Shown in pieces: positions 2,742 to 61,523 of a stretch of 64,000 nucleotides of DNA. The notes under the pieces were generated by a model. That model was not told where the DNA came from and ran no database searches. It saw nothing but the letters and a program-made list of their open reading frames with translations. Source of the stretch: Dehalococcoidia bacterium (GTDB lineage: Bacteria > Chloroflexota > Dehalococcoidia > Bin125); contig CAXXSR010000001.1 of assembly GCA_963662615.2 (NCBI GenBank), forward strand, positions 512,001 to 576,000. The letters run 5' to 3'. Position 1 is the first letter of the stretch; every line of letters starts with the position of its first letter. Made by a program: the position numbers and the translations under genes.

Positions 2742-2818
2742 GGCGCATTCGTCTAGCGGCCCAGGACACCGCCCTCTCAAGGCGGAGATCGGGGGTTCGA
2801 ATCCCCCATGCGCTACCA
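2742..2818 (+). tRNA. tRNA-Glu(CTC)
   Basis: Acceptor stem GGCGCAT/ATGCGCT, anticodon arm CCGCC-CTCTCAA-GGCGG, GGTTCGAATCC, encoded CCA. Confidence 0.97.
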
Positions 2819-2829
2819 AACGAGTCACC

Positions 2830-2853
2830 GGCTCCCCTTGGGGGAGCCTTTTT
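2830..2853 (+). terminator. Rho-independent terminator after the tRNA pair
   Basis: GGCTCCCC-ttg-GGGGAGCC followed by TTTTT. Confidence 0.85.
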
Positions 2854-3095
2854 GTGTGGCGGCGCCTCGACACGGATCGGCCTCCAGCGGCCGCCGCCGC
2901 TGTCTCAGCCTGTCGCCCGTGCTCGTTCGCACAGGACGACACAGCCAACGCAGCAACGGTGAGGAGTGCGACTCCACCGAGTTGCTTAACCAACCTTGAG
3001 GAGAGCCGTACCATCGGTGGGGAGCTGCGCCTGTTTTCCGCTGCGCACGGACGTCAGTGATGCAGTGAGTCAACCCGTTAGGAGAGTGGACGACC

Positions 3096-4280
3096 ATGGC
3101 TCTACCAGAGCGAATGAAATTCGGAATCTTCATGGGGCCGTTCCACCGGGTGGGAGAAAACCCCACGCTCGCCTTGGACCGCGACCTGGAATTGATCCAG
3201 TGGCTCGACAGTCTCGGGTATGACGAGGCGTGGATCGGCGAACACCATAGCGCCGGATGGGAGACGATCTCCTCTCCCGAGATCTTCATTGGCGTGGCCG
3301 CCGACCGCACGAAGCACATCAAGCTGGGAACAGGCGTGATCAGCCTTCCCTACCACCATCCCTTTAACGTCGCCAACCGCATGGTCCAACTGGACCACAT
3401 GAGCCGCGGGCGCGTGATGCTGGGCGTAGGGCCCGGCGCCTTGCCCGGAGATGCCTACATGCTGGGCATTGACTCCACCGTGCAACGACAGCGTATGGAC
3501 GAGGCGTTCGGGATGGTCTTGCGGCTGATGACCGAGACCGAGCCCATCACCTACAAGAGCGACTGGTTCGAACTTCGAGAAGCCCTCTTACAGTTGCGGC
3601 CTTTCAGCAAACCCCACATGCCCATCGCGGTTGCCGCGGTCCAATCCCCCGCTGGGGTCGCATTAGCTGGGAAATATGGCGCGGCGCTGCTGACCATCAC
3701 CATTCCCCGCGACCCGTCCGCCGCTCCCGCGGCCGACCTCGCCGGGCTCTGGAACATCGCCGAGGAGTCAGCGGCGGAACACGGGCAGAGAGTGTGCCGC
3801 GACGACTGGCGCTTGGTCTTGCCGGTACACCTGGCCGAAACCAAAAAGGAAGCGCTGGAGCAGGCCCGGTTGGGCGCCGGCCGCTTCCAACGAGAGTACA
3901 TGGAGCACACCATCGGCCGGGCACAGATGGTAGACGGCCCGCCGGAGAGGATCGTCGACGCGATGGCCGACAGCGGCGCCTGGATCATCGGCACGCCGGA
4001 TGACTGCATCGAGGGCATCAAACGGTTGGATGAGCAGAGCGGGGGCTTTGGCGGCTTTCTGGTCCAGGCCATTGACTGGGCCCCTCGGGAGCACCTCCTG
4101 CACAGCTTTGAGCTGTTAGCCCGGTACGTCATGCCCCATTTCCAGGGCAGCACCTTGAGCACCGTCGCATCCAACGCGTGGGCCTACGAGCGGCAGGGAA
4201 CGCTGAACGCGGGCCGCGATCGAGCCATCGACCGAGCCAGATCGGACTACGCCAATCGAGCACTGGAAAGACGGCTCTAA
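3096..4280 (+). CDS. LLM-class (luciferase-like) flavin-dependent monooxygenase
   Basis: MKFGIFMGPFH, GYDEAWIGEHHS, IKLGTGVISLPYHHP, LDHMSRGR motifs. Confidence 0.92.
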   Translation: MALPERMKFGIFMGPFHRVGENPTLALDRDLELIQWLDSLGYDEAWIGEHHSAGWETISSPEIFIGVAADRTKHIKLGTGVISLPYHHPFNVANRMVQLDHMSRGRVMLGVGPGALPGDAYMLGIDSTVQRQRMDEAFGMVLRLMTETEPITYKSDWFELREALLQLRPFSKPHMPIAVAAVQSPAGVALAGKYGAALLTITIPRDPSAAPAADLAGLWNIAEESAAEHGQRVCRDDWRLVLPVHLAETKKEALEQARLGAGRFQREYMEHTIGRAQMVDGPPERIVDAMADSGAWIIGTPDDCIEGIKRLDEQSGGFGGFLVQAIDWAPREHLLHSFELLARYVMPHFQGSTLSTVASNAWAYERQGTLNAGRDRAIDRARSDYANRALERRL

Positions 4281-4386
4281 GCGGCGCACGACGCCAGGAA
4301 AGCGGTCTGGCCCGAACGCAACGGCGCGGCGGCGGGCGCAGGGCCTCCAGCCGTCCTTGCCACGACGAATGCCTCGGCTACCTCCC

Positions 4387-4611
4387 CTACGCCTCGACGA
4401 AGAACGACCAGAAAGCCAGGGACGGGACGAACTCGAAAAGCAAATTCTCGCACTCTAGGCAAGCCCAGACCCAGGCGTCTGGGGATTCGAGGGAGCGGAG
4501 GCATTTTCGACAGTACCGACTCCCGCAGGGCTCGCAGGTCTCCCACCCGGAGTACAGGCGCCACAGCCACCCTCGCTTCTTGCCGCATCCCCGACATGCC
4601 TTGGTCCTCAT
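4387..4611 (-). CDS. 74-aa Cys8 zinc-finger protein, FYVE/rabphilin-like spacing
   Basis: MRTKACRGC...CEPC-x4-CRKC...WACLEC; GAGAGG RBS before the ATG at 4611. Confidence 0.65.
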   Translation of the reverse strand: MRTKACRGCGKKRGWLWRLYSGWETCEPCGSRYCRKCLRSLESPDAWVWACLECENLLFEFVPSLAFWSFFVEA

Positions 4612-4784
4612 GAGGCACCTCTCAAGCCGTTCTGCTCGTTCACCAGCCTGATACTCGCTGCCTCGATGCGCCGCGGGCAGGTGCACCCGCCCCATCCGCC
4701 ATGGGACGAATGACCCATTCGTCTCTTTTGCTGGTGAGCGAAGCATCCTGCCTCCCATCTGTCTTCGTCCCCTGCGGCATTCAG

Positions 4785-4915
4785 GAGGCGCCGAGTCCTT
4801 GCGCCCCAGTCGCTCGGCGACCGTGTACACACCCTCTCCGGCCCTCATCCAAAGCGTCGTCGCGGTGTGCCACGCGGCCAGATCGAGGCCGCCTGCCCTC
4901 ACGCAGAAGATCGAC
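4785..4915 (-). pseudogene. Tyrosine recombinase/integrase C-terminal remnant
   Basis: CVRAG..LAAWHTATTLWMRAGEGVYTVAERLGRKD resembles the box II pattern LRHT.AT..L.AG....V..RLGH.D, with the catalytic R and second H degenerate. Confidence 0.6.
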
Positions 4916-5148
4916 TCCGCGGACGGCGAGCGGGCTCGTCCCCAGTGCGCTAGTCTCCGGCCGCGGGCACCGATCGGACCTGCTCCCCGGCGGCGTCGGC
5001 TGGGGCCCCCACGCTTGCGGACACGACGCCGGCGACAGCATCGTGACCCTCATCTGGACGCCGCCACGGCCGCACTGCCTGTCTGCTGCGCTCGACGTAC
5101 TCTGCATCCCTGCCCGCATCGTGCCTCACAAAACGAGGGGAGGAGACC

Positions 5149-5562
5149 GTGACGCATTTCAGTGCTGCCGCCGAGAAGCGCTTGCGCGCCGACCAGATCG
5201 CCTGGCTCACCACCGTGAGCCCCAGCGGGATGCCGCGGTCGTCGCCGATCTGGTTCCTCTGGGACGGCGAGACCTTCCTCATCTTCAGTCAGCCGAACAA
5301 GCCCAAAGTCCGCAACGTCGAAGCGCACTCCAAAGTCTCACTGCACCTCGACGGCGACGGGCGGGGCGGCAACATCGTCACGATCGAGGGGACGGCGCGG
5401 ATCGACCGCGATGCGCCGCCGGCCGATGCCGTCTCCGCTTACGCGGAGAAATACGCGGCTGGCATCAGGCGCCTGGGGATGGATGCGGCCAGGTTCGCCG
5501 CGGACTACTCGGTGGCGATCCGGATCTCTCCCCTGCGCGCCCGCGCCTGGCTGGTGTCGTGA
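5149..5562 (+). CDS. PPOX-class F420-dependent oxidoreductase (Rv3369-like)
   Basis: IAWLTTVSPSGMPRSSPIWFLWDG, KVRN, GGNIVTIEGTA; GGAGGAG RBS. Confidence 0.88.
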   Translation: MTHFSAAAEKRLRADQIAWLTTVSPSGMPRSSPIWFLWDGETFLIFSQPNKPKVRNVEAHSKVSLHLDGDGRGGNIVTIEGTARIDRDAPPADAVSAYAEKYAAGIRRLGMDAARFAADYSVAIRISPLRARAWLVS

Positions 5563-5818
5563 CGATCGGATGCTTCTCGACCTCGACTCCGAGAGCAGAC
5601 GAACGACCTGGGGGCGCTGGGTAGAACTGCACCCGGCGAGGCGCGGTGTATCCCGCAAATGGAGCCGCGGGGCGCCCTCCTGCGAAATCCAGGCAGCGTT
5701 AACCCACAATCTCCTACGAGTATCCTGTGCCCCCTGAAGACTGGCGGTGTCGTGCGCCGCCATCTAGCAGAGAATGCAGGGCCAGCCAATTCGGTTCTTT
5801 CGCGGATAGGGGTGACGA

Positions 5819-6532
5819 ATGCGGTGGTTCGTGGTCGCGCTCGCATTGGCAACCGTTCTCACATCAAGTGTGGTGTTTGCGGCAGAGAAAGCGCACGCCC
5901 CGGCCCAAGGAGCTCCCTCGGCTGACATCACGCTGGAGGCGGGCATCAACGAGCTGGTGTATCTGGGTGAGACGGCGACGGTAGAGGAGGCGCTGAACTC
6001 GATTGCTGGCCTCTATTCTGCGGTGTTCCATTGGGACAACACCACGCAAACGTGAAGCGTGAATCGACCGGGCGAGCCGGCCTTCCTCTCCGACTTGGAG
6101 ACGATGGAGTTCGGCCAGATCTATTGGATTGTCGTCTCCGCGCAAGTCCAGCTTACGATCGCGGAGATTGGCGGATTAGCCGGCCCGACCATCGCGATTA
6201 CGGGTCTGGACTTCGCGTTCGACGGTGTGCCCGAAACCGTGGACGCCGGACTCGTGACCTTCACGTTCGAGAACACGGGCGCCGAGTTTCACGAGATGAT
6301 CTTGGCGCGGCTGCCCGAGGGAATGACGTTGGAAGAGGCTCTGGCACTCCCCCCAGACGATGAGAGCCTTCTCCCGATCGGGGTCCTCTTTGCCCTGCCG
6401 GGAGTCCAGGGTGGCAGCTTGACCGTCGACCTCGAGCCCGGGACCTACGCGTTCATCTGCTTCTTCGAGAACGAGCAGGGCCCGCATGCCTTCCAGGGGA
6501 TGGCCGCCGAGTTCATCGTCGCCGGGCCCTGA
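5819..6532 (+). pseudogene. Secreted protein (conserved N-terminal module plus cupredoxin domain) interrupted by in-frame TGA at 6053-6055
   Basis: Signal peptide; ORFs 5819-6055 and 6059-6532 share one frame; type-1 Cu ligands HEMIL...C-x7-H-x4-M; the TGA aligns to Trp in the paralog at 59201. Confidence 0.8.
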
Positions 6533-6628
6533 GCTTGGCGCTCAGCGGCGGCCCCACCTACACCTGCGCCCCCCGACAGGCAGCAAGTTCTCGCCACTGG
6601 TCGCGCCAGCTCATGCGGATCATGTGCC

Positions 6629-7165
6629 TCATACCGTCGGCGAAAGGCTCTTGGTGGGCGCGTCCCACCATATCTCGTCCTTGGCGTCCGTGTACTCGAA
6701 GACGCCGAGGTATTTCGCCGCCCAGCTTAGCGCCGGCAGTCCGAAGCCAGATTTCATCGCCCGCGCCTTGATCTCGCGTGCCGGTAAGGGACCTTCGGCC
6801 AGCCAGCGCATCAGGTCGTGCGCTGCAGCGTCGCGAGAGGCGGGGCTGCACGGTGGGGGCGGGGCTCCATTACGGCGAGCCCCCAACATGCGCGTCGTGT
6901 CACACTCGCCGCACAACCTCTTGTCCCCAAGCGACTTGGAACATTCGCCGCAATAGGCGCGACGACATTGGGAGCATTCGCTCCAGAAGGGGAAGCGCCA
7001 GATCGCCGCGCGCTCATCACCGCACTTCGAACATTGCCCCTGCGCGAGGCTTCGCAGCCCTCGCTTGCGGCCCCTGAGTCGGTACGTGAGCGAGAGAAGG
7101 ATGTCGACCAGCACGTAAGCGAGAAGACCGCAGAGATAGATGGCCAAGAGTGCGAGCAGCGGCAT
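6629..7165 (-). CDS. Membrane-anchored Cys8 FYVE-like zinc-finger protein with possible C-terminal winged-helix-like domain
   Basis: N-terminal hydrophobic helix; CSKC...CSQC-x4-CGEC...RLCGEC; tail WLAEGPLPAREIKARA. Confidence 0.7.
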   Translation of the reverse strand: MPLLALLAIYLCGLLAYVLVDILLSLTYRLRGRKRGLRSLAQGQCSKCGDERAAIWRFPFWSECSQCRRAYCGECSKSLGDKRLCGECDTTRMLGARRNGAPPPPCSPASRDAAAHDLMRWLAEGPLPAREIKARAMKSGFGLPALSWAAKYLGVFEYTDAKDEIWWDAPTKSLSPTV

Positions 7166-7530
7166 GTCCCACCCCTTTCATCCGACGCCAGCTCATCCCG
7201 GGCTGAGGCAAGGATGGATGTCCTGGCCGCCTGAAGGGAGGTGCGGGTGCCCCATCCGCCGTGGGACGAACGACCCCGCCGCTCGTCGGCCGGCAGGAAG
7301 TCCGGACTCGGTACGGAGCGAAGCCGCGTACGAGGTTCCGCCCGTCACAGCCACCTCGCGCCCGGTTTCAGGCCCCCAACCTCGAGACCCCCGGACCTGC
7401 CGTGCGGGGTCATGTTCGACGTCACGCGGCGACGGAGCGCGGGACTGGAGGACAGATGGACGCGCTGGTTCCAGATGGCGGCAGCACCCGTCGACGGGCG
7501 CCGTCACCTCACGTCAGCGACCGTTGCGAA

Positions 7531-7612
7531 CTCTCAAGGCGAAGGTCGTGGTTTCGAATCCCGCAGGCGCTGCCACACGCGTCACCGGCTCCCCGAACGG
7601 GGAGCCGGTTTT
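7531..7612 (+). repeat. Degenerate duplicate of the tRNA-Glu 3' half and terminator (att site)
   Basis: Ungapped match of 7531-7594 to 2774-2837 (about 9 mismatches in 64 nt), starting at the anticodon loop. Confidence 0.88.
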
Positions 7613-7638
7613 CGCCTGCTGGGGGGCGATTCGGCCCT

Positions 7639-7851
7639 TCAGGGGACGACGTGGGCGACCCGCCAGCGAGCGCCCTCCCGGAGAAGGTGAACCGTCGCCC
7701 GCACTCCCTGGGGGTTGACGAGACACACCTGTGCTCGGCCCCCATGAACGTTGACCGATTCCACCGTGGGGGAAGCGAGCGCCGCTGCGCCGAAGGACTC
7801 GGTGACGGCGGTGACGCGGGCAGAGTCCCGGTCCATGGCGACGCAGGTCAT
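7639..7851 (-). CDS. Small hypothetical protein (70 aa)
   Basis: GGAGAGG RBS before the ATG; beta-rich, ends LLREGARWRV (NTF2-like ending). Confidence 0.45.
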   Translation of the reverse strand: MTCVAMDRDSARVTAVTESFGAAALASPTVESVNVHGGRAQVCLVNPQGVRATVHLLREGARWRVAHVVP

Positions 7852-7912
7852 GCTTCCGCCTCTCCAAGTTGCTTGCGCGTCCCCGACCGCCGGGGTCCGG
7901 CGCCTCGGCGCT

Positions 7913-7968
7913 ATCGCTAAGGAGCGATCGCGAAAGATCGATTGCGAAAGAGCCATCGCTAAGGAATA
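7913..7968. repeat. 4 x 14-bp tandem array (ATyGCkAArGA-NNN), probable regulator-binding array
   Basis: Units start at 7913, 7927, 7941 and 7955. Confidence 0.75.
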
Positions 7969-8215
7969 GACGGGTTATCGCTCCGGGCGTGACGATCCTC
8001 GTGGACCCGGGCGGCCCGAGTGCGCTCCATCTGGTGGTGGCGCCGCTGTCGCGTCGCGCCCCTGGGCTCGACGGCGGCTTGATTGAACAGCGGCGGGATT
8101 AAACGGCGGTGGGCTCGCTCGGAGCGGCTGCGAGTAGACTGACCTGGCCTGAGACGGAGAGGGCCCCGATATCTTGGCTCGACCGCAGACAGCGAAGCGA
8201 TGCGCTGCCAGCTGA

Positions 8216-9217
8216 ATGGAGTCCATCATGCCCGACCGCGACCTGTTCCGCTCCGAGACGTTCCGCCCCGAGACGTTCCGCCCCGAGGCGATCGACGCGG
8301 AGACCGCCGCCTTCAACGCCGATCTAGCGCGGCAGTTGGCCGGCGCGCCTCGCAACGAGGATCGGCCCATCGACGTGGCGCGGCGCGAGCGCGAATCGGG
8401 CGAGGGCGTCTTTGGTCCCATCACGTTGCTGGAGCAGGCGGTTGAACGGCGCATCCCGGGCCCGGGCGGCGAGGTGCCGCTGCGGCTCTTGGTGCCGGAT
8501 GCGGTCCACGGCGTCTATCTCTACCTCCACGGCGGCGGCTGGGTCTTCGGGCGCGCCCACCTCCAGGACGACGCGCTCTGGCGCATTGCGACCGAGGCCG
8601 GCGTGGCCGTGGTCAGCGTGGACTACCGCCTGGCGCCGGAGCACCCCTATCCCGCGGGCCCCGACGACTGCGAGGCCGCCGCGGTCTGGCTCGCGCGCAA
8701 CGCGTTGGCGGAGTTCGGCACGGATCGGCTCGTGATCGGCGGCGGTTCCGCAGGCGCGCACCTGGCCGCGGTCACGCTCCTGCGGATGCGGGACCGGCAC
8801 GGCTACACCGGCTTCGCCGGCGCCGATCTGCTCTATGGCATCTATGACCTCTCCATGACGCCCAGCCAGCGGCTGATCGGCCGCGACAGCCTCGTCATCG
8901 ACGCGAGGTCGATGGCCTGGTTCTACGACCAGTTCGTGCCCACGCAAGACCGTCGCGATACGGACGTCTCGCCCCTGCACGCGGAGCTGGCCGACATGCC
9001 GCCGGCGCTGTTCACCGTGGGCACGCAGGATCCGTTGCTCGACGATTCGCTCTTCATGTGCGCGCGCTGGATCGCGGCCGGGAACGAGGCCGAGCTGGCT
9101 GTCTATCCCGGCGGGGTGCACGGCTTTACGAACTTTGCCGGCTCCTTGCCCCGCCGGGCGAACGAGCAGCGCACGGAGTTCATCGCCGAGGCCGCGCGCG
9201 AGCGGGTCGAAGCCTAG
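8216..9217 (+). CDS. Alpha/beta hydrolase, HSL-family esterase
   Basis: YLHGGGW, DYRLAPEHPYPA, GGSAG nucleophile, DPLLDD, HGF. Confidence 0.92.
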   Translation: MESIMPDRDLFRSETFRPETFRPEAIDAETAAFNADLARQLAGAPRNEDRPIDVARRERESGEGVFGPITLLEQAVERRIPGPGGEVPLRLLVPDAVHGVYLYLHGGGWVFGRAHLQDDALWRIATEAGVAVVSVDYRLAPEHPYPAGPDDCEAAAVWLARNALAEFGTDRLVIGGGSAGAHLAAVTLLRMRDRHGYTGFAGADLLYGIYDLSMTPSQRLIGRDSLVIDARSMAWFYDQFVPTQDRRDTDVSPLHAELADMPPALFTVGTQDPLLDDSLFMCARWIAAGNEAELAVYPGGVHGFTNFAGSLPRRANEQRTEFIAEAARERVEA

Positions 9218-9222
9218 CCGTC

Positions 9223-11370
9223 CTAATCTCTCCTCATTGCCGCGGTGCGCGCGGCCGTCGCCAGCACGACCGCGGCGGCGGCGGCGACGCCGACAGCCGC
9301 CAACGGCGAGAGCCGGTCGGCATCGTCGTCGTGCGCAAGACCGCCGCTCCCTGTGGAAGGAAGGGCTGCGGGCGCCTCGGCACCCGCTGGTTCGCCCGTT
9401 GGCGCCTCCGGCACCGCGGGCGCCTCCGGCGCCGTGGGCGTGACCGTGGTGTCTGCAAGCACGAGGTGGAACACGTAGGCGCTGCCGGACGCGTCGTGAT
9501 CGCCGAACGCGCCCACGGAAACCGTGTCGCCGCTGATGGCGACGCTCGCGCCAAACTGGTCACCGCGGGCGGCGTCGGCGGCGGTTAGTTTGGCCACCTG
9601 GCCCCAGGCCCCCGCGCCCCCTTGATCGCGCGCGAAGAGGTAGGCGCTGCCGGAAGAGGTGCCGGCGTCGTCATCGCCCGCGGCGCCCACGATCACCGTG
9701 TCGCCGCTGATGGCGACGCTCTCGCCAAACGCAGCGAACGCGGCGGCGGCGGCGGCGGTCAGTTTGGCCACCTGGCCCCAGGCCCCGGCGCCCCCTTGAT
9801 CGCGCGCGAAGAGGTAGGCGCTGCCGGACTCGGCGCCCGCGTGGTCATCGAACAGTGCGCCCACGATCACCGTGCCGCCACTGATGGCGACGCTCACGCC
9901 GAACCCGTCACCCGAGGCACCATCGGCGGCGGTCAGTTTGGCCACCTGGCCCCAGGCCTCGGCGCCCCCCTGATCGCGCGCGAAGAGGTAGGCGCTGCCG
10001 GATCGCTCGCCCGCGTCGTCATCGCCGCTCGCACCCACGATCACCGTGTCGCCGCTGATGGCGACGCTCGAGCCAAATCCGTCACCTGCAGCGGCGTCGG
10101 CGGCGGTCAGTTTCGCCACCTGGCCCCAGGCCCCGGCGCCTCCCTGATCGCGCGCGAAGAGGTAGGCGCTGCCGGAATCGTCGCCCGCGTCGTCATCGTG
10201 GATCGCGCCCACGATCACTGTGTCGCCGCTGATGGCGACGCTCCTGCCGAAGCGATCGTCGGCGGCGGCATCGGCGGCGGTCAGTTTGGCCACCTGGCCC
10301 CAGGCCTCGGCGCCACCCAGATCGCGCTCGAAGAGGTAGGCGCTGCCGGACCGGTCGCCCGCGTCGTTATCACCGCGCGCACCCACGATCACCGTATCGC
10401 CGCTGATGGCGACGCCCACGCCAAAGCGGTCAACCGCGGCGTCGGCGGCGGCGGTCAGTTTCGCTACCTGGCCCCAGGCCCCGGCGCCACCCGAATCGCG
10501 CGCGAAGAGGTAGGCGCTGCCAGACAGATTGCCCGTGTCGTCATCGTCGGGCGCACCCACGATCGCCGTGTCGCCACTGATGGCGACACTCCAGCCAAAC
10601 CGATCCTTCGCGACGGCGTCGGCGGCGGTCAGTTTGGCCTGCTCGGTGGGAGCCGTGGGAGTGGTCGGCGGCGACGCCGTCGTATCGACCTCGGTGGGAC
10701 CCGTGGGCGTGGTCGGCGGCGACGCCCCGGCGTCAACAACCTGCAAGAATCCGTCGCCCGCGGCCATGCGCTCGCCCGGGCCTGTCACCGCCTGGGGTAC
10801 ATGGTCTTCCGCTCCCCAAATCGCGAGGTCGGCCGCGCCGAAGTCGTCGACGCGTTCACAGAGCTGAATCGTGACGCCGTGGACCCCGAGGACACGCTGG
10901 AGCTCGGCGGCGAGGGCCAGGGCCACACGCGATCGATCGACGTCGTCGATGGCCGCGTCCGCCGTTGCCGGCGCGGCCCAGATCCGACACGGACGGGCTT
11001 CTTCCACAGACGACGTCCCGGCCGTGTCGAAGCCCCCGGCCACGAGCCAAGATTCGGCCAGGTCGGCGGTGATTCCGAACTGGGCAATGTTCGAACGGAT
11101 TGCGGGGATCGCGTAGTGCAGACGCGTCCGGGGATTCAAGCCGGCCTCGACCACCACCGCGTCCGCGTCCATGACAATGGCCAAGGCGAGCACGAGGCGC
11201 CCAGGTGAGAGTGTCTCGGAGGATGTCGACGCCCAGAGGGCTGCGAAGGCCCAGCGGAGGTCATCCGCGTCCGGCTCGGCCGGCTCCTGCGCCTGCGCGG
11301 GAGCCTGGGCAAGGGCGACGAGGAGCAGGCCAATGGCGGCGCCCATGACTACGCGAAGCGGGTATCGCAT
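9223..11370 (-). CDS. Surface protein with 7 FG-GAP (integrin-alpha-like) repeats and an LPSTG sorting signal
   Basis: Signal peptide; 7 x KLTAADA..D.FG.SVAISGDT.IVGA..D..G..SGSAYLF; LPSTGSGG + hydrophobic helix + RR tail. Confidence 0.9.
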   Translation of the reverse strand: MRYPLRVVMGAAIGLLLVALAQAPAQAQEPAEPDADDLRWAFAALWASTSSETLSPGRLVLALAIVMDADAVVVEAGLNPRTRLHYAIPAIRSNIAQFGITADLAESWLVAGGFDTAGTSSVEEARPCRIWAAPATADAAIDDVDRSRVALALAAELQRVLGVHGVTIQLCERVDDFGAADLAIWGAEDHVPQAVTGPGERMAAGDGFLQVVDAGASPPTTPTGPTEVDTTASPPTTPTAPTEQAKLTAADAVAKDRFGWSVAISGDTAIVGAPDDDDTGNLSGSAYLFARDSGGAGAWGQVAKLTAAADAAVDRFGVGVAISGDTVIVGARGDNDAGDRSGSAYLFERDLGGAEAWGQVAKLTAADAAADDRFGRSVAISGDTVIVGAIHDDDAGDDSGSAYLFARDQGGAGAWGQVAKLTAADAAAGDGFGSSVAISGDTVIVGASGDDDAGERSGSAYLFARDQGGAEAWGQVAKLTAADGASGDGFGVSVAISGGTVIVGALFDDHAGAESGSAYLFARDQGGAGAWGQVAKLTAAAAAAFAAFGESVAISGDTVIVGAAGDDDAGTSSGSAYLFARDQGGAGAWGQVAKLTAADAARGDQFGASVAISGDTVSVGAFGDHDASGSAYVFHLVLADTTVTPTAPEAPAVPEAPTGEPAGAEAPAALPSTGSGGLAHDDDADRLSPLAAVGVAAAAAVVLATAARTAAMRRD

Positions 11371-11430
11371 CGGGATGCTCCCTTGCCGGCCTGACGCTGG
11401 GGGGACGGCCAAGGATCAGCCTCCCTGTTC

Positions 11431-12417
11431 CTACCCATCCCCGAGTGTACGGCGGTATCCATTACCTTCGCTGCTGAGCACGTAGGCGGTGGTGGTGCAG
11501 CCCGCGTCGTCACAGAGAAGTTCGTCGAAGGAGATGTCGCGCCGCGCGTCGCCGTTCACGTCCTCGACGCTGCGCACGATGATATTCAGGCTTGAAGCGG
11601 TCTCGCCGCGCAGCTGCTTGACCGCGTTGTGATCGTAGGCGATGCGGAAGACCCCCGGGCTGTCCGGCAGCGGGTCGTAGATGACGAGGTTGCTGCCGAC
11701 GTCCGGGGCGCCGCCCGTGGCCGGGTCCGTGAACACGAGCACGATGCTGGAGCGGCCGTCGCCCGGCTGGATCGCGTCGCGGTTGGTGTCCGCGAGATTC
11801 CAGCGGGAGCCGTCCGCCACCCGCGGCAGGGCCCAGGCGCTGGAGAGCGGCAGCAGCGCGTCGATGGTGGTCCGTCCCTGGATCCAAGGCACAAGCGTGC
11901 TCCCGAAATCGGCGAACGCGTCCGGCCGGTCCGGCACCTCCGCCACCGTCACGCCCGGATCGGGCTGATCGAAGAGGCTGGGGGTGGTGACGATCTCGTC
12001 GCCCGTCAAGGCCGCGGAATCCACTGCCGGCGCTGTTGTGTCGGCTTCAACGGCGGGTTCAACTTCGTCCTCGCTGGCTGCAGGCTCGTCAACGGTCGGC
12101 GCCTCGGCCGGGGCGGTCGCCGCTGCAGGCTCCGCCGGGGGCGCAGCCTGCTCGGCCGGCGCCTCAGTTACTTGGGCTGGCTCCGTTGGGCGCGGCGGCG
12201 CCTCCGCGCGGGGGGCGGCGTCGTCGGCGTCGTCGGCGGGAGCGTCTCGGGCGGCAGCGTCGTCAGGGGTCTCGATCGGCGCGGCTGTGTCTGCCGCCGG
12301 CGACTGCGCTGCGTCAGCGCTGGCCTCGCTCGCGTCGTCGTTCCCGCCGCCGCACGCGGCCGCGACGAACGCTGCCAGGCAGGCGCCCGTCGCCAGGATC
12401 GTGATCCGCTTTGTCAT
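11431..12417 (-). CDS. Lipoprotein with Ala/Pro/Glu-rich stalk and C-terminal domain bearing DxNxD motifs
   Basis: Lipobox VAAAC; DTNRD and DVNGD. Confidence 0.75.
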   Translation of the reverse strand: MTKRITILATGACLAAFVAAACGGGNDDASEASADAAQSPAADTAAPIETPDDAAARDAPADDADDAAPRAEAPPRPTEPAQVTEAPAEQAAPPAEPAAATAPAEAPTVDEPAASEDEVEPAVEADTTAPAVDSAALTGDEIVTTPSLFDQPDPGVTVAEVPDRPDAFADFGSTLVPWIQGRTTIDALLPLSSAWALPRVADGSRWNLADTNRDAIQPGDGRSSIVLVFTDPATGGAPDVGSNLVIYDPLPDSPGVFRIAYDHNAVKQLRGETASSLNIIVRSVEDVNGDARRDISFDELLCDDAGCTTTAYVLSSEGNGYRRTLGDG

Positions 12418-12697
12418 CGCAATCCTCCCCTTGACCTAACCGGCGCCGATCACGTCGCCGATTTCCAAGCTAGACGGCGGCAAGCGGCATTCGGTTCCAC
12501 GGTGAAGAGCGGCCTCGCGAAGCGTCACGCACTCGACCTGAAGAGATGGCTGCGCTGCCCGCTCTGGAATGGGGGCTGGACGGGAACAATTCCGGCGTGG
12601 GATCGTTCCCGCTAGTAACGGCGCGCGCGGGTAAGGGAGAGGCCCTTCGACCGTGCGGCGTGCTGGGCACGCCTCGCGCCTCGGAAAGGACGGCATC

Positions 12698-13366
12698 ATG
12701 CGACGCTTGCTCGCGTTCCTGTTGGTGGTGGCGGCCGGCGCGGTCGCTGCCGCGGCGGTCCTGTATCTGGTCGTGTTCGACTCCGGCAGCGACGAACTCG
12801 CCGTGGGCGTCAACTTCCATCCCTTCACCTCGTCGCCGGGCAATGAGAGCTGCATCCCCGCCGTCGACGGTGGCAGCGGCCCTCCCAACAGCTGCGATCC
12901 GATCAACCTCGTCTTCGACGGCGTCGCCCTCGATGTCGCCGTCGGGGCGTTCATCGACGCCGGCTGGACGACGATCGGATTCGGCTCCACGCAGTTGCTC
13001 TTCTTTGACGACGAACAGCGACTGCGGCCTCAGAACGTGCAACTGTTCTTGCAAAACAGCCTCGACGAGCGCTTCCACATGCGGCTCTGGGGCGCCGCCG
13101 ATCCAGGCGGGAACGTTGTCATCATCGGCGCGGTCCATCACGAGCGGGGCTTCATCAATCACGCGATCGATCGCGACTGGGAAGCGGCGGAGCGTCGCGT
13201 GCGCGACGATCTCTGCGAGGACGGCCCTTTCCGCTGCCGCGGCAACTCGACGCTCAAGGAACAGTTGGAGATTCAGGGCGACGACACCGAGTGGCGCGGC
13301 TGGACCAACGACGGCAAGCCCGCGCTGATCAGCAGACCGGGCAAGCCGGATGCCGTTACGGAATGA
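12698..13366 (+). CDS. Exported protein with LssY C-terminal-like domain
   Basis: N-terminal TM; DPINLVF, AGW, RFHMRLW, GAVHHE, HAIDRDWE, TNDG motifs. Confidence 0.7.
   Translation: MRRLLAFLLVVAAGAVAAAAVLYLVVFDSGSDELAVGVNFHPFTSSPGNESCIPAVDGGSGPPNSCDPINLVFDGVALDVAVGAFIDAGWTTIGFGSTQLLFFDDEQRLRPQNVQLFLQNSLDERFHMRLWGAADPGGNVVIIGAVHHERGFINHAIDRDWEAAERRVRDDLCEDGPFRCRGNSTLKEQLEIQGDDTEWRGWTNDGKPALISRPGKPDAVTE
13126..13357 (+). repeat. 232-bp imperfect direct repeat, copy 1 (3' end of the LssY-like gene)
   Basis: Ungapped match to 14540-14771, about 10 substitutions. Confidence 0.95.
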
Positions 13367-13475
13367 CCATCCGACTTTGAGCGCACGCCTGGGATACGAG
13401 AGGCCTCGGTGGGAGCCGGGGAGGACGAGGCCGGCCCTGCTCGCCGTTCCCGGGGGCGAGGGCTAGGCTGACGAC

Positions 13476-13997: not shown

Positions 13998-14025
13998 CGG
14001 CCGTGGCTGATGGCCGAAGTGGGGT

Positions 14026-14214
14026 ATGCCTAAAGTCGCTGACGCGATCCATCTCGTCGAGCGCGACGGCTGGGTGCTGGTCCGGACCAGCGGGAGCCAC
14101 CGGCAGTACAAGCACCCGGAGAAGCGAGGCACGGTTACGATCGCCGGCCCGGAAAGCAGTGACCTGGCTGCGGGTACTTGGAACAGCGTCTTGAACCAGG
14201 CCGGGCTGAAGTGA
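14026..14214 (+). CDS. hicA: HicA-family toxin
   Basis: DGWVLVRTSGSHRQYKHPEKRGTVTI, GTWNSVLNQAGLK. Confidence 0.93.
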   Translation: MPKVADAIHLVERDGWVLVRTSGSHRQYKHPEKRGTVTIAGPESSDLAAGTWNSVLNQAGLK

Positions 14215-14225
14215 AGGGCGCCCTG

Positions 14226-51169: not shown

Positions 51170-51276
51170 TCCGTCGCATTCCGTGAGGCCGCTTGCGTGA
51201 AGGCACGGCAAGAGCGGCACCCGCCGCAGCCGAGGGCGGGTCTCGGCATGACCAGAGAGCGAACGAGCGGGCGCTC

Positions 51277-52218
51277 CTAGAACATCGCGATGGGGTTCAC
51301 GGGCGAGGCCGTGCCCCGCTCCAGACGCAACGGCGCCAGCGTGAAGAGGAACTCCCAGCGGTTGCGCTCGGAGCAGGCCGCCGTCAGCCGGCCCAGCTGC
51401 ATGTTGTCGATCAGGTGCACGCCGAGGGAGGGGATGACGATCTGATGGATGGGCATGGGCCAACCTTCCACGTCATGGGGGATGGCGTCGGAGATGCCGT
51501 CGCAGCCCAACACCGCAACGTCGCGCTCGCGCAACCAGGGAATGCAGTCGGCGCCGAGGCCGGCCATCCCATCCATGAAACCCCAAGGGCCGCGGGCGTC
51601 GCGGCGGGCGTCGCGCCCGGTCCCAATGAGGAGGACGTCGCCGGCCTCCACCTGCACACCCTGGCGCTCCTCGGCTGCCTCCAGCTCGCCGCGGGCGATG
51701 CGTTCGCCCGGCTCCAGCCAGTCGACGCCGCGCAGGCTGGGGATGTCGAGCAGCACGCCGCGGCTGACGATGCCGTCCTTGCCGGCCATGATGCTGTCGC
51801 GGTGGGCGCCGTTGCTGCGAACCTCGGCGACGTCGAAGCCGTTGTAAATCTTTCCTCCCACGGAGATATGGCAGAGCGCGTCCAGGTGGGTATTGGCAAT
51901 GCCGTGCGGTGCCATGGCGAAGTAGTCGGCGGTGAAGGCCAAGCCGGGCAGGAGGAGGCCCGCCGGCAGATCGCCCGCCATCAGCATGAAGTGCGCCACC
52001 GGCGCTTCGTTGTCCGCCGCCGGCGTCACCGCGACGGGCAGGGCGCAGCTCACCGCCACTCCGTCCTGTAGCAGGCCGCCCGCGGCGGCCCGCTTGGCGT
52101 CCGTGATCAGGTTCAGGGCGCCGCGCTCGTCCTCGGCGCCCCAGCGGCCCCAGTTCGAGACCTGCTGCGCCATAGCGTCCAAGTCGGCTGTGGTGAACGT
52201 GGCGGTCGTCTGGACCAT
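51277..52218 (-). CDS. Cyclase-family metallohydrolase, paralog 2
   Basis: Co-linear with and highly similar to 48215-49165. Confidence 0.9.
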   Translation of the reverse strand: MVQTTATFTTADLDAMAQQVSNWGRWGAEDERGALNLITDAKRAAAGGLLQDGVAVSCALPVAVTPAADNEAPVAHFMLMAGDLPAGLLLPGLAFTADYFAMAPHGIANTHLDALCHISVGGKIYNGFDVAEVRSNGAHRDSIMAGKDGIVSRGVLLDIPSLRGVDWLEPGERIARGELEAAEERQGVQVEAGDVLLIGTGRDARRDARGPWGFMDGMAGLGADCIPWLRERDVAVLGCDGISDAIPHDVEGWPMPIHQIVIPSLGVHLIDNMQLGRLTAACSERNRWEFLFTLAPLRLERGTASPVNPIAMF

Positions 52219-56903: not shown

Positions 56904-57947
56904 TCAGGGCACCAGCACCGCCCGACCCTTGACCCGGCCGGCGTGCAGATCGTGCAGCGCGACGTTCGCATCGCGCAGCGGATACTCCCGCGTCGCCAGA
57001 GTGACCAGCCCGCGGTCGGCCAGCGCCATCAACTCCACCAGCTCCGCATACGTCCCCACCAGATTGCCGACGATGGTCCGCTCGGAGATGATCATCTCGA
57101 TAGCGGGGATCTGGATCTGGCCGCCATAGCCCACGATGTAGTAGGAGCCGGCATTGCGCGTCATGGCCAAGCCCGTGTCCGTCGTGCCGCCTTCGCCCAC
57201 GAAGTCGATCACCGCCTCGGCGCCGTTGCCGCCCGTCAGCTCCCGCACCGTCTCGACCTCGTTGCCGTCGGCCGCGACCACGTGGTCGGCGCCCAACTCC
57301 TGCGCCAGCCCGCGCGCCGTCTCCGACCGATCGACCACGATGATCTCCGCGGCGCAGAGCGCCCGCAGCGACTGCAGCCCAATGTGCCCCAGGCCGCCCG
57401 CCCCGATGATCACGGCGTATTCGCCCGGCAGCAGATGCCGCGACGCCTTCTTGGCCGCGCGGTAGGCGGTCAGGCCGGCGTCGGCGTAGGGCGCCACCTC
57501 CTTCGGCGCGAGCGTCTGCGGCAGCTTCGCCAGCGTGCGGGCGTTGGTCTTGAACAGCTCCGCGTAGCCTCCGTCTGCATTGATGCCGGGGAAGACGCCG
57601 TCCGTCGCGTGCATGTCCTGCCCGCGGCGCGATGCCAGGGAATAGCCGCCGCTGACCAAGGGATGGCAGATGACGGGATCGCCGGCCTTGAACCCGTCGA
57701 CGCCGCTGCCCACCTCCTCCACCCAGCCGGCGTTCTCATGCCCCATCACGTACGGCAGCGTCACCTCCACCTTGTCCCGCCACAGCGCCTCAATCACGTG
57801 CAGGTCGGTGCGGCAGACGCCCGCCCCGCCCACGCGGACAATGACGTCCAGCGGACTCTCAATGCGCGGGTCCGGGACCTCCTCATACACCACCCACTCG
57901 GCCTGGCTGACGCTGGGGTCGTACTCATGCAGCACTGCCGCCTTCAT
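56904..57947 (-). CDS. Zn-dependent NAD(P) alcohol dehydrogenase (prm-cluster type)
   Basis: GVCRTDLH, GHENAGW, ADAGLTAY, GAGGLG; GGGAGGAGG RBS. Confidence 0.92.
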   Translation of the reverse strand: MKAAVLHEYDPSVSQAEWVVYEEVPDPRIESPLDVIVRVGGAGVCRTDLHVIEALWRDKVEVTLPYVMGHENAGWVEEVGSGVDGFKAGDPVICHPLVSGGYSLASRRGQDMHATDGVFPGINADGGYAELFKTNARTLAKLPQTLAPKEVAPYADAGLTAYRAAKKASRHLLPGEYAVIIGAGGLGHIGLQSLRALCAAEIIVVDRSETARGLAQELGADHVVAADGNEVETVRELTGGNGAEAVIDFVGEGGTTDTGLAMTRNAGSYYIVGYGGQIQIPAIEMIISERTIVGNLVGTYAELVELMALADRGLVTLATREYPLRDANVALHDLHAGRVKGRAVLVP

Positions 57948-58232
57948 TGCCGCTGCCTCCTCCCCTTCCGGCGTCCTCCCGGAAGGTCCGTATAGTACAA
58001 CCGCGACGGCGCTCCGCTGCAGCCGCGCTGCGAATATCCTGGCAGGGGGACGCGGCGGCAAGGCGAACGATGGCAACGCGACTCACGCCACACGCACGAC
58101 CGACCGTGTTCGACGGTCCGCTGCGGCGCTCGCCGCGGGCGCCGGCAAACCCCGCGGCAGCGGCGCTCGTATCCCCTGCTAGCCGCGATGTCGTCCTGCG
58201 GCTCGAGGAGGAGAATGTGACGCTGGCTGACG

Positions 58233-58856: not shown

Positions 58857-59200
58857 GAGCCCGCGGCCACTGAAGGCTGCGGCGGCCGCCCCCGCTCCGG
58901 GCCGGCTCGTGGCGAACGCGATCCCCAAGGGCGAACTCCATGCCCAACAGTTCGGCCCGACGTTGCATCCGTCCGGCGACCGAGCGCGGGGCGCGCCTGA
59001 CTGAGAGCGGGCGTCGCTGTGGAGGTGGAGCGGGCGGGAACCGATGGTGCGGCTGTGCTTGAGTGCGGCCCCTTGCGCTGAATCCCTCACAACGTTTCCG
59101 AGAAAGGAGGGGGCCGGAAGCAGCAAGATTCTCTGCCGGTGTGGCCCCTGCGCCGAACTGGTTGATCGGCTACCTTCGCGCGACAGCGAAGGGGGAACAA

Positions 59201-59988
59201 ATGTATCGATTGCTCACGGTGGTAGCGGTGGTGCTGGTCGGTGTCGCGCTTCTCTGGCCACAGGAGACTTCAGCGGATACGGAGCTGCTGCTACAGCCCG
59301 GGTTGAACGAGTTCGTCTATACGGGCGAAACGTCGCCGGTGGCGGAGGCGCTGAACACTATCGAGGGCCTGTATGACGTGGTCTACCACTGGGACATCGC
59401 GGCACAGGTGTGGCGGACATTCCGGCCTCCGCCGGCCCCGGCGTTTCTGTCCGACTTCGAGCTGATGGAGCCGGGCAAGATCTATTGGGTCGTGGTGGCG
59501 CAGCAACTACAACTGACCATCACCGAGCCCGACCCGCCCAGCCCAGCCCGTTCCTTGCCATCGGAGACTCGTGGGTCCGCTCGGACGGCCTGGAGCTGAC
59601 GCTGCTGGAGTGCGGGGCGAACGTCCACCAGGATCGCCCCTTCGCGTGTAGCTTGCGGCTGTCCAATACGGGGTCGCGCGTGATTTCGGAACTCTCCTTC
59701 CCGAATGATGCAGCGCGGTTCCGCTCGGTACCCGGTACAGCTATCTCGGTGTACTTCACTGACGACACGCCCGGGGCGACCGATTGCTTCGACCTTCCGG
59801 ATCAGATTCAGATCTGCCCTCACACCGACCTCCTGCTGAACCCGGGAGATTCCGTGACGTACGTAATCACCGACTTTTGGGGCAATGTTTCGTCGTCATC
59901 AGACACGCCCGTTAGCGAGGTGGTGCGGCTCGAGTTCCTTGACGACGGTGCCGACGCGATGGCCGCATGGGACTTGTTCGCGTCCTAA
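59201..59988 (+). pseudogene. Secreted protein (same N-terminal module as 5819) frameshifted by a 5-bp tandem duplication near 59536-59550
   Basis: Signal peptide; removing one AGCCC unit joins ORF 59201-59599 to ORF 59410-59988 (DPPSPFLAIG). Confidence 0.78.
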
Positions 59989-60068
59989 GCTGTCCACCGA
60001 GGCTGCTGAGGCGATCGAGCAGCCAAGTCGCTCGCGGATGTCCCGCGTTGCAGGCGCCGCTGTGGGGG

Positions 60069-60143
60069 TGGAGCGGCGGACGGGATTCGAACCCGTGGCC
60101 CCCTGCTTGGAAGGCAGGAGCTCTACCCCTGAGCTACCGCCGC
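60069..60143 (-). tRNA. tRNA-Gly(TCC)
   Basis: Acceptor stem GCGGCGG/CCGCCGC, anticodon arm CCTGC-CTTCCAA-GCAGG, GGTTCGAATCC, encoded CCA. Confidence 0.96.
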
Positions 60144-60375
60144 GCGCCGGCACCAGCGTACGGCCAGGCGACGGCGTCGGGAAGGGCGGCCACCCGGCCA
60201 CCACCGTCGGCGGCCTCGATGCTCGACGAGTGGACGCGCTCGGCATCCACCCGTCCCGGCTCCTGACCGACGACCAGACGCGCCGAACATCGCGCCGCTC
60301 CTGCTAGCCTGCCTGCGTGGCCACGCGATCGAGCGCCACGGCACGGCCCGACAGGAAGAGGAAACCGAGGTTGCC

Positions 60376-60807
60376 ATGACCGTACCGACGAGAAGACGCC
60401 GACGTGGGCCGGCCGGGACGCCGATCCCCGACAGCCATGCTGATCTGATCGGCGCGCCGCACCTCGCCCACCTGGCGACGCTCAACGCCGACGGCTCCCC
60501 GCAGGTTTCACCCGTATGGGTGAAGCGCGACGGCGATGATGTGCTCTTCAGCACCACCGCCGACCGCCTCAAGGCGCGCAACCTGCAGCGAGATGGCCGC
60601 CTCGCCCTGTCGATCCACGACTCCGCGGACCCCTATCGCTACATCGAGCTGCGCGGGACCGTAACGATCACCCCCGATCCCGAGCACACCCTCCTGGACG
60701 GCCTGGCGAAGGCCTATCTGGGAGTGGAGAAGCATCCCTGGACACGGCCGGAAGACGTTCGTGTCGCGGTCCGCCTGCGAGTCCGCTACACCTACACGAT
60801 GGAGTAG
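60376..60807 (+). CDS. PPOX-class F420-dependent oxidoreductase
   Basis: AHLATLNADGSPQVSPVW, KARNLQRD, DPYRYIELRG. Confidence 0.9.
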   Translation: MTVPTRRRRRGPAGTPIPDSHADLIGAPHLAHLATLNADGSPQVSPVWVKRDGDDVLFSTTADRLKARNLQRDGRLALSIHDSADPYRYIELRGTVTITPDPEHTLLDGLAKAYLGVEKHPWTRPEDVRVAVRLRVRYTYTME

Positions 60808-60906
60808 TCCGCAGCCGCGCTTGCCGAACTCCGCTCGGATGCCGCGCTGCATATGTCAGGATCTCAGCCGACGAAGCTTTTTCAACCAATGCGTGGGAGG
60901 GAACAG

Positions 60907-61344
60907 ATGGCGTTCAGCATGAGTGAGACCGTCGAGATCAACCGCCCGGCGGGCGAGGTGTTCGCTTACCTATCCGACCTGAACAACGACCCAAAGTGGC
61001 AGAAGACAATCGTCGAAGCGAAGTACACGTCGGAAGGCCCGGTCGCCGTCGGGACGACCGGCGTGCATCGAGGGAAGGGCCTGGGCAAGACCTTCGATTT
61101 CGGGTGGGAGATGACCGAATACGAGGAGCCCAGGCGGGCCGGATGGAAGTTCATCTCGGGCCCATTCAGCGGCACCGATGGCTATACGCTGGAATCCACG
61201 CCGGGCGGGACGAAATTGACGCATGCAGCCGAGCTTCAGCCCCATGGCCTCTTCCGTCTCCTCACCCCTATCCTGGGCGGCGGGTTCGCGAGGCAGGCGC
61301 GGAACGACCTGCAGACCCTGAAGAGGATTCTCGAGTCTCAGTAA
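60907..61344 (+). CDS. SRPBCC (polyketide cyclase-like) protein
   Basis: VEINRPAGEVFAYLSDLNNDPKW...DLQTLKRILE; GGGAGG RBS. Confidence 0.88.
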   Translation: MAFSMSETVEINRPAGEVFAYLSDLNNDPKWQKTIVEAKYTSEGPVAVGTTGVHRGKGLGKTFDFGWEMTEYEEPRRAGWKFISGPFSGTDGYTLESTPGGTKLTHAAELQPHGLFRLLTPILGGGFARQARNDLQTLKRILESQ

Positions 61345-61523
61345 AGGCGGCTTCGTGAGACCAGGCTGCTCGCCGGCCGCCGCTGGGACGGGCGTAATCC
61401 TCGGCGAACCGTTCGTTGCGGCGTCTTCCCGGAAGGTCCGTATCGTACGCCCATGACGGCGGCCGATGATAAGGCCGTCGCGCTTTACCAGCCCCCTAAG
61501 CGTCGGGCCGGTACCCTAGGCGC

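Follow-up and report, generated by a model that had tools for sequence, protein, structure and literature searches.

Duplicated gene ends around small cassettes in a Dehalococcoidia genome: island scars and probable insertions with long target duplication

Direct repeats and duplicated gene ends in the window

How toxin-antitoxin and restriction-modification (R-M) cassettes reach chromosomal sites that carry no trace of a transposase or an integrase is a question raised here by a stretch of 64,000 nucleotides (nt) from a Dehalococcoidia bacterium (GenBank assembly GCA_963662615.2, contig CAXXSR010000001.1, positions 512,001 to 576,000; G000:C1:512001-576000 in our numbering), hereafter called the window, in which seven segments are each bracketed by an imperfect direct repeat. 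The initial annotation of the window had taken all seven as one phenomenon, namely the recurrent and non-destructive gain of DNA at gene ends by an undescribed system acting in trans. Our own reading, to which we give a probability of roughly 55%, is that ordinary island scars of different kinds occur together in the window, including insertions with long target duplication at an LssY-like gene, at the formate dehydrogenase gene fdhF and probably at yqeC, and not the traces of one system. The earlier observation was largely right, and it is stronger genome-wide than the window alone could show. The protein-gene cases nevertheless represent a known, mechanistically unexplained mode of insertion, here with toxin-antitoxin cassettes, and not a new system. 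The source genome (G000) comprises 2.66 Mb in two contigs with 68% GC. Its gene map is based on Pfam scans of open reading frames (ORFs) and a purpose-written codon-bias gene caller, with approximate gene starts. The relatives used for comparison (G003, G004, G008, G010, G012, G015, and G016) belong to other genera of the same family and share approximately 70-78% DNA identity.

All seven repeat pairs were found near the positions first proposed, and each outscored 300 of 300 Markov shuffles (boxes of approximately 150 x 150 nt). Self-BLAST of the window recovered four of them: the LssY pair (232 nt, 95% identity), the tRNA-Glu pair (64 nt, 86%; 80 nt when gapped) and two further pairs of 46 nt (85%) and 33 nt (94%). 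The fdhF, yqeC, and tRNA-Gly pairs were below the reach of this search and, because the genome-wide gene-end scan presented below showed no enrichment under approximately 35 bits, they are not significant by DNA score alone. The initial annotation was therefore sound for four strong pairs, while three of its pairs are weak as DNA. Its other descriptive points held as well: the order of intact end, cargo and orphan copy is the same in all five gene or tRNA cases, identity between copies spans 72 to 96% across pairs, as expected from the wide divergence noted at first, and the window has no match to the recombinase families PF00589 or PF00239, of which 21 (E ≤ 0.01) and five matches, respectively, were detected elsewhere in the genome.

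Eleven public runs hold part of the stretch, and we aligned the contigs of four metagenome runs from three studies; five further public runs (X1-X5) contain only 0.05-0.08 of the sampled words. Junctions were bridged by contigs at 13283-14569, leading from LssY copy 1 through the cargo to copy 2, and at 19443-22351, covering the fdhF end, both orphans, the PIN-Phd pair, and yqeC. Another contig, at 3542-9597, crosses the right end of the tRNA-Glu island. Bridging contigs differed from the window by 0-10 nt. Since contigs of four runs and three studies cross the junctions, we conclude that the repeat structures are not an assembly artefact. Among the listed contig joints of these four runs none omits a cargo or closes a circle, a result that, being from contigs only, is uninformative either way.

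The longest repeat, of 232 nt, lies at an LssY-like gene (12653-13366, + strand) recognized by a weak LssY_C match. Copy 1, formed by the 3' end of the gene (13126-13357, +), ends 9 nt short of the last base of the stop codon and is followed by a cargo of 1182 nt (13358-14539, +) coding for a clan-AA aspartic protease (13476-13997), HicA (14026-14214), and HicB (14211-14432). The orphan 3' end (14540-14771, +) is 95% identical to copy 1, with seven non-synonymous and four synonymous differences; it has no start codon, and its frame stays open until 14807 with an altered tail. The LssY-like gene now closes with two codons and a stop that come from the cargo. Of 61 genomes it was detected in one, G000 itself, and its protein had no relative in the 60 family genomes and none in a metagenome scan, a distribution by which we judge the gene to be accessory in its own right. 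A conserved unit of protease and HicAB was considered and rejected, as HicA or HicB adjoins the protease in none of 22 loci.

Next come two cases between fdhF and yqeC. The fdhF-like gene for the formate dehydrogenase alpha subunit (16767-19547, +) contributes a repeat copy at 19479-19548, behind which lies a cargo of 445 nt (19549-19993, +) with a low GC content (0.59 vs. 0.68) that holds most of an ORF without family (19668-20021, 117 amino acids [aa]). The orphan 3' end (19994-20069, +) is a gapped match of 76 nt with 74% identity and reads GRRKGKRRQYW, then TGG in the stop position. In nine relatives the family C-terminus reads RGKR(K/R/G)QY(W/A/S) directly before the stop, and because the translated orphan equals this conserved C-terminus, we accept it despite its weak DNA score and regard it as confirmed at the protein level. 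The intact yqeC gene (21648-22499, - strand) has its repeat copy at 21672-21701. Its putative orphan 3' end (20777-20807, -) is a weak match of 31 nt reading IERVAAYDA, which fits family C-termini such as GIDWVIAYDA but is short, so that a true yqeC orphan is plausible. The cargo between them (20835-21575, -) encodes a PIN toxin (20835-21284) and a Phd/YefM antitoxin (21288-21575), and the two orphans are separated by another ORF of low GC content and no family (20252-20674, -, 140 aa). None of the unknown cargo ORFs had a PADLOC or PHROGs match; the sole PADLOC match, a weak one, was for the PIN protein.

With its two orphans and cargos, the gap between fdhF and yqeC measures 2.1 kb in the window. 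In relatives it is 6 nt (G016), approximately 164 nt (G003, from coordinates), 976 and 974 nt (G008 and G015, with one membrane-protein gene) or 1199 nt (G004); the yqeC end fell inside the examined locus in four of the nine relatives' loci. From this comparison, fdhF and yqeC would formerly have been adjacent. The empty site between these two genes was seen in other genera, as was the shorter tRNA-Glu interval described below.

Gene-end orphans across the genome

For the 3'-end scan, the genome was searched with the final 150 nt and 30 nt of downstream sequence from 1907 genes with a length of 150 aa or more, and for the 5'-end scan with the first 150 nt plus 30 nt upstream of each gene. Hits were counted when they lay outside other genes of at least 150 aa and within 10 kb, and reached at least 50 bits and at least 25 coding nt. 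Orphan 3' ends were downstream and direct for 20 genes, downstream and inverted for one, upstream and direct for two, and upstream and inverted for none. A 3'-end orphan lay within 10 kb for 23 genes and only farther off for 60 others. The 5' ends mirrored this pattern, with ten upstream-direct, five downstream-direct and no inverted orphans. When multi-copy families were removed, 11 downstream-direct and one upstream-direct 3' orphans were left, with none inverted on either side (11 genes dropped), as were six upstream-direct and two downstream-direct 5' orphans, again with none inverted (six genes dropped); each of the two filtered sets includes one insertion sequence (IS) pair. The recurrent gain of DNA at gene ends with duplication of the end, proposed from the window, is therefore real and clear genome-wide by a check of the kind suggested for it, but it is not specific to 3' ends, as 5' orphans occur upstream of their genes.

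For 16 gene-end pairs, three in the window and 13 elsewhere, the repeat begins 32-245 nt before the gene end, and its other end lies at -38 to +74 nt, counted from the stop codon's last base. The cargos at 20 loci are diverse and include TauE, clan-AA protease, HicA- and HicB-like proteins, a histidine kinase with a GGDEF set, a STAND NTPase and IspH, among others. No integrase was found in any gene-end cargo scanned at these 20 loci. Cargo was seen as small as 454 nt with a single gene, or as one gene of 128 aa. No shared core emerged among 18 repeats (153 pairwise comparisons, best raw score 16).

Mismatches between gene end and orphan were spread evenly over the three codon positions in the pairs of LssY (4/3/4), HAD (6/6/7), acyl-CoA dehydrogenase (1/3/1), pyridoxal-phosphate (PLP) decarboxylase (2/3/2), unk183 (10/10/9), and fdhF (4/5/4), which add up to 27/30/27 by hand. 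Such an even spread fits an initially identical copy that decayed neutrally, and it speaks against a pair of alleles diverging under selection. The 16 pairs taken together had mismatches of 67/67/99 on 550/552/558 sites (p = 0.016). Synteny with relatives gave no empty site for the IlvD or HAD pairs.

A second locus (L013; G000:C1:1053600-1056500) has genes for a Rieske protein and an acyl-CoA dehydrogenase, which abut in G008 and are approximately 120 nt apart in G012 and G003. In G000 there are three copies of the dehydrogenase 3' end, namely the intact one, an orphan of 78 nt (94%) and an orphan of 37 nt (92%). The 37-nt orphan stands directly behind the Rieske stop codon. The 78-nt orphan is preceded by the same 69-nt spacer that trails the stop codon of the intact gene, and is separated from the intact dehydrogenase gene by a clan-AA protease gene. 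The dehydrogenase copies are 94-95% alike, compared with 84% to G008 over the same stretch. This arrangement would correspond to insertion at the same gene end twice in succession, with duplication each time.

Three unrelated genes thus had a clan-AA protease gene between their duplicated ends, namely the LssY-like gene, the acyl-CoA dehydrogenase gene, and purC. The latter belongs to locus L064 of a Methylomirabilis metagenome-assembled genome, where the purC end (3464-3572), the protease (3701-4063), and the purC orphan (4070-4178) follow one another with a repeat of 109 nt and 86% identity. L064, which belongs to a different phylum, is the single clear case of the same architecture among 20 protease loci in other genomes. 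The protease-bearing cargos have only the protease ORF in common, and the closest relatives of the protease gene in the genome collection came mostly from metagenome-assembled genomes of Dehalococcoidia or Chloroflexota. A special link between the protease and flanking repeats was rejected: a direct flank score of at least 28 was reached in two of the 20 loci (one clear, one marginal) vs. four of 72 control ORFs from the neighborhood. In G000, two of three protease loci reached this score.

Two small dispersed intergenic repeats, S and W, of approximately 40-60 nt with hairpins, gave 36 and 14 BLAST matches genome-wide, respectively. Examples stand at 2546-2604 and 48108-48181 of the window and at L013:813-881 and 1344-1412. 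Their copies are mostly just past gene ends, and they look like repetitive extragenic palindromic (REP) or miniature inverted-repeat transposable elements (MITEs). One S copy belongs to the duplicated unit at the acyl-CoA dehydrogenase locus. The S element was discarded as the maker of long target duplications, as only two of 15 S copies had long flanking repeats.

Probable insertion with long target duplication and its alternatives

The three protein-gene segments of the window are inserts of 0.45-1.2 kb with 30-232 nt of target duplicated, spanning or nearly spanning the stop codon, and two of the three contain a toxin-antitoxin pair (HicAB, Phd-PIN). In the portions of the paper covered here, Furuta et al. 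(2010; PMC2853133) described insertion with long target duplication for R-M units, with repeats of 46-423 bp and no other mobile elements. The repeats often span a start or stop site and leave the target gene intact, the species concerned are naturally competent in most cases, and the mechanism is left unexplained, only double-strand breakage being suggested. Their criteria, in the same portions, were repeats longer than 30 bp, an insert below 20 kb that lacks other mobile-element genes, a single-copy target at the empty site of a related genome, and homologues of R and M in the insert. The repeats here measure 232 nt (LssY), 76 nt with gaps (fdhF), and 31 nt (yqeC, borderline), and the inserts of 0.45-1.2 kb have no transposase or integrase by Pfam; their genes are HicA/HicB, PIN/Phd, the clan-AA protease, and ORFs without family instead of R and M. 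Furuta and colleagues cite a report by Nobusato and colleagues from 2000. A further paper, PMC2654758, merely cites Nobusato in its reference list.

As far as those portions of Furuta et al. (2010) go, the likeness extends to repeats of tens to hundreds of bp that often span a start or stop codon, to small inserts without transposase or integrase, to variable lengths, to unrelated targets and to a selfish, addiction-type cargo. The cases differ in cargo, which here comprises toxin-antitoxin pairs, a clan-AA protease, and other genes and not R-M units, in the high-GC host lineage, and in the source of the empty sites, which were found in other genera only. Among the papers found for long target duplication together with toxin-antitoxin systems, judged mostly by title and abstract with supplements aside, none reported toxin-antitoxin cassettes as inserted in this manner. 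The mode of insertion having been described for R-M units (Furuta et al., 2010, in the portions covered), the idea of an undescribed system falls, and there is no sign of a single agent in trans, as the targets share no motif. The suggestion that the gain is non-destructive stood, or nearly so.

We propose that the recipient's own sequence would be duplicated on the spot as foreign DNA is joined in. One copy would then keep the gene whole while the other decays. The fixed order of intact end, cargo and orphan would be a survivor effect, because a gene stays functional only after insertions in which the duplicated target includes a gene boundary. As agent of the duplication we infer host replication or repair, for instance widely staggered breaks with fill-in, or template switching, with no dedicated recombinase.

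Several points weigh against this reading, beginning with the agent just named, host repair being our inference. The even decay across the three codon positions rules out only a donor allele that has diverged, and not a donor of the same species. The pairs of PD40, two CoA-transferases, and OsmC show a third-position excess (34/27/63, hand sum) and may be the remains of old paralogues. At locus L021, purD, purB, and purC stand between gene and orphan, an ill fit to insertion. An rSAM-B12 "orphan" was dropped when the gene end turned out to be a 301-nt tandem array of dispersed S and W elements. In the yqeC orphan the final 24 nt of the gene are missing, for which an extra deletion is needed. 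Moreover, the empty sites come from other genera only, with the LssY-like gene present in just one of the 61 genomes, and the published cases carry R-M genes, none of which was seen here.

The main rival is integration by an integrase-bearing element into the 3'-distal part of a protein gene. All cases would then be tyrosine-recombinase integrations in which the element carried a mimic of the target 3' end, with an integrase later deleted or acting in trans; we consider this possible but unlikely. It draws on the classic form of the tRNA-Glu pair, on the PF00589 and PF00239 matches outside the window, and on a tyrosine integrase of this genome that has an orphan of its own 3' end (locus L024, below). 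The part of Krupovic et al. (2019; PMC6563490) covered here documents such integration in Thaumarchaeota, with 14 protein-gene, 39 tRNA, and 15 intergenic targets, and with gene ends kept working by a stop codon that the element supplies, just as the LssY-like gene ends with two codons and a stop from its cargo. Those elements, in the same part of the paper, have integrases and short attachment sites, whereas the window has none and its repeats reach 232 nt, with mismatches evenly spread and no identical core. The lack of a common motif among 18 repeats, cargos down to 454 nt with a single gene, 5'-end orphans upstream of their genes, and the occurrence of clan-AA protease genes between duplicated ends of three genes that are unrelated also speak against site-specific integration. 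Integron gene cassettes depend on the IntI integrase, an attI site and structured attC sites common to the cassettes. They differ from the present segments, as the window is without integrase, the repeats share no motif and the protease cargos share only an ORF.

Homology-anchored addition is improbable in our view. It would bring in DNA of a close relative in which the same gene end is followed by other genes, with a circularised fragment entering through a single crossover or with homology-facilitated illegitimate recombination, and two copies of the anchor would be left. The genome does encode ComEC and DprA, and most cases of Furuta et al. (2010; PMC2853133, in the portions covered) are in naturally competent species. 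Several repeats end 0 to +5 nt from the stop codon, as if the donor shared the gene and not its downstream region. We rejected this as a sign of a donor allele, however, as the pairs ending there are mostly old (72-82%), their non-coding similarity being lost anyway, and the younger ones end at -22 to +74 nt. The mismatches of younger pairs are even over codon positions instead of third-position biased as between working alleles, and Ku was not found in the genome, which is 93.6% complete. Homology-facilitated illegitimate recombination, reportedly described in transformation by de Vries and Wackernagel in 2002, normally replaces or deletes recipient DNA past the anchor and leaves the anchor unduplicated. 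It resembles the present cases in that foreign DNA is joined beside a homologous anchor without a dedicated recombinase, but here the anchor is duplicated, and the codon-position pattern argues against a diverged donor allele.

We would also be surprised if no insertion had taken place and the orphans were the last remains of tandem or segmental duplicates otherwise deleted. The third-position excess of the four pairs named above and the housekeeping pur genes as "cargo" in L021 favor this idea, as do the many tandem paralogues of the genome (430 direct vs. 12 inverted repeats within 10 kb overall). It is countered by the empty sites in other genera for fdhF/yqeC and for Rieske/acyl-CoA dehydrogenase, by cargos without a second copy beside the orphan, by the low GC content of the fdhF cargo and by the position of the orphans, since symmetric tandem decay would predict otherwise than 3' orphans downstream and 5' orphans upstream. 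Finally, assembly chimeras of strain variants can be dismissed almost entirely, as the breaks of public-run contigs within the LssY repeat (13155-13283, 14569-14645) would also be caused by the repeat itself, junction-spanning contigs with 0-1 differences occur in four runs of three studies, and 11 fixed differences separate the two LssY copies.

Under insertion with long target duplication, copies should be identical at insertion, there should be no sequence specificity, and surviving insertions should be seen only at gene boundaries. A more far-reaching idea, which we put forward tentatively and with considerable doubt, is that recombinase-independent insertion duplicating 30-250 bp of target is unusually active in this lineage and moves minimal selfish cassettes between gene boundaries, these being toxin-antitoxin pairs and perhaps also solitary clan-AA retropepsin-like genes. 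If true, some 15-30 events in a 2.66-Mb genome would be a natural record of the spread of toxin-antitoxin cassettes without any mobile-element gene. On our main reading, the genome offers dated events, at 72-96% identity, from 3' as well as 5' gene boundaries, including serial insertions at one gene end, and its toxin-antitoxin cargo widens the phenomenon past R-M units. For annotation, that reading also explains short orphan ORFs and altered C-termini beside accessory genes.

tRNA genes, intergenic repeats, and other features

The seven pairs are a mixed set: the tRNA-Glu pair is integrase-like, the 46-nt pair surrounds the sole tRNA-Gly(UCC), and the 33-nt pair stands apart. The intact tRNA-Glu(CTC) gene (2742-2818, +) shows 100% identity with its counterparts in three related genera. 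Repeat copy 1, resembling an attL site (2774-2853, +), begins at tRNA position 33, within the anticodon loop, and continues to the 3' end plus 35 nt with a hairpin. The orphan copy of this 3' half and hairpin, resembling an attR site (7531-7611, +), has 86% identity over the first 64 nt, where nine positions differ from the intact copy. The cargo between them (2854-7530) holds genes for a luciferase-like monooxygenase (3114-4280), a PPOX-class F420 oxidoreductase (5149-5562), and a small secreted-looking protein (6059-6532). No integrase or integrase remnant was detected in this island by Pfam or by a PF00589 scan of the window. In three relatives (G008, G004, and G010) gltX, tRNA-Gln, and tRNA-Glu are followed by the fdh operon within approximately 1.0-2.5 kb, an interval worked out by coordinates in these three of 20 relatives. 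Because the same interval occupies 12 kb in the window, the whole stretch 2819-14851 is a variable region behind tRNA-Glu.

The only tRNA-Gly(TCC) gene of the genome (60069-60143, -; anticodon UCC) ends in a 27-nt repeat (60050-60076, -) that consists of its final 8 nt and 19 nt downstream. The partner (59007-59033, -) is identical at 25 of 27 positions and is the best other match in the genome (E 0.015 vs. 2.66 Mb), and a real tRNA-Gly orphan is only plausible. The 1-kb segment between the two repeats encodes a paralogue (59141-59599) of the small protein 6059-6532 of the tRNA-Glu island, which fits related integrative elements at both tRNAs.

In tRNA islands formed by integrases, the direct repeats comprise the 3' part of the tRNA, beginning at the anticodon loop, the T-loop or the acceptor end; Williams in 2002 is said to have distinguished classes of such sublocations. 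The 4.7 kb bounded by an 80-nt direct repeat at tRNA-Glu would accordingly be the footprint of a tyrosine-integrase island whose integrase has since been lost, and the pair has the look of an ordinary integrase scar; a smaller such scar is probably represented by the tRNA-Gly pair. Indeed, the tRNA-Glu repeat extends from the anticodon loop to the 3' end, the 3' acceptor end lies within the tRNA-Gly repeat, and the islands lie immediately behind the tRNA at a site that varies between genera. They differ from integrase tRNA islands in that the window is without a detectable integrase or remnant and in their metabolic cargo of F420-type oxidoreductases. Islands without integrase that retain both attachment sites are covered by the term cis-mobilizable element (CIME).

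For both the 33-nt and the 46-nt pairs, the partner of each repeat is its best other match genome-wide, and synteny with relatives yielded no empty site for either. The 33-nt repeats (49672-49703, +, and 51200-51232, +; 94%) bracket a binding-protein gene (49738-51027, -), the first lying 35 nt past its stop codon and the second 45 nt past that of a cyclase gene (51277-52218, -), and the pair fits an intergenic target duplication. This cyclase gene and its paralogue at 48215-49165 are 75% identical in DNA, and more copies of the family are found at G000:C1:1894509 (86%), 576521 (84%), and 194065 (76%). The 46-nt repeats (85%) start with a hairpin and are in opposite orientation relative to their neighboring genes, repeat A (57966-58011, +) lying 19 nt upstream of the start codon of adh, on the - strand, and repeat B (61416-61461, +) lying 63 nt upstream of a flavin adenine dinucleotide (FAD) oxidase gene that starts at 61524. 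Because the 3.4 kb that they enclose contain the only tRNA-Gly(UCC) of the genome, this pair is probably not a cassette; a regulatory or structural element in common, or a rearrangement of old date, is more likely. The adh gene (57150-58026) is 88% identical to a gene of G004, compared with approximately 70-75% between its neighbors and their relatives, suggesting a recent transfer of adh.

From left to right, the window contains rluD-like, gltX, tRNA-Gln, tRNA-Glu, the island region, a hydrolase gene, an FG-GAP repeat protein gene, and the LssY-like gene; then the clan-AA protease, HicA, and HicB, a three-gene fdh operon with the fdhF-like gene as its third, two small ORFs, PIN and Phd on the minus strand, yqeC, mobA, and housekeeping genes; and finally the two cyclase paralogues around the binding-protein gene, adh, a lipoprotein-like gene, tRNA-Gly, and a glcD-like FAD oxidase gene. 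A tandem array of six to seven copies of a 174-nt repeat (9469-10639, 78-85% identity) lies within the FG-GAP repeat protein gene (9223-11412, -). A Peripla_BP_6 binding-protein gene at 40285-41643 is broken into two adjoining ORFs (41251-41643 and 40285-41238, -) and is probably a frameshifted pseudogene.

Elsewhere in the genome, locus L024 (G000:C1:1189000-1198500) has an intact tyrosine integrase gene (8019-9149) with the orphan of its own 3' end 7.9 kb upstream. Integrase and orphan enclose a TIR-domain gene and IS3-type transposase genes, an arrangement that recalls elements with an attachment site inside the integrase gene. At C1:1643143-1645486 and 1680563-1683027, two tyrosine-recombinase matches adjoin one serine-recombinase match, and these clusters may be multi-recombinase mobile elements. 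The contig ends C1:2001847-2004080 and C2:542-2775 show one internal repeat pattern with equal spacings and identities, and may be one sequence, that is, an overlap of the two contigs.

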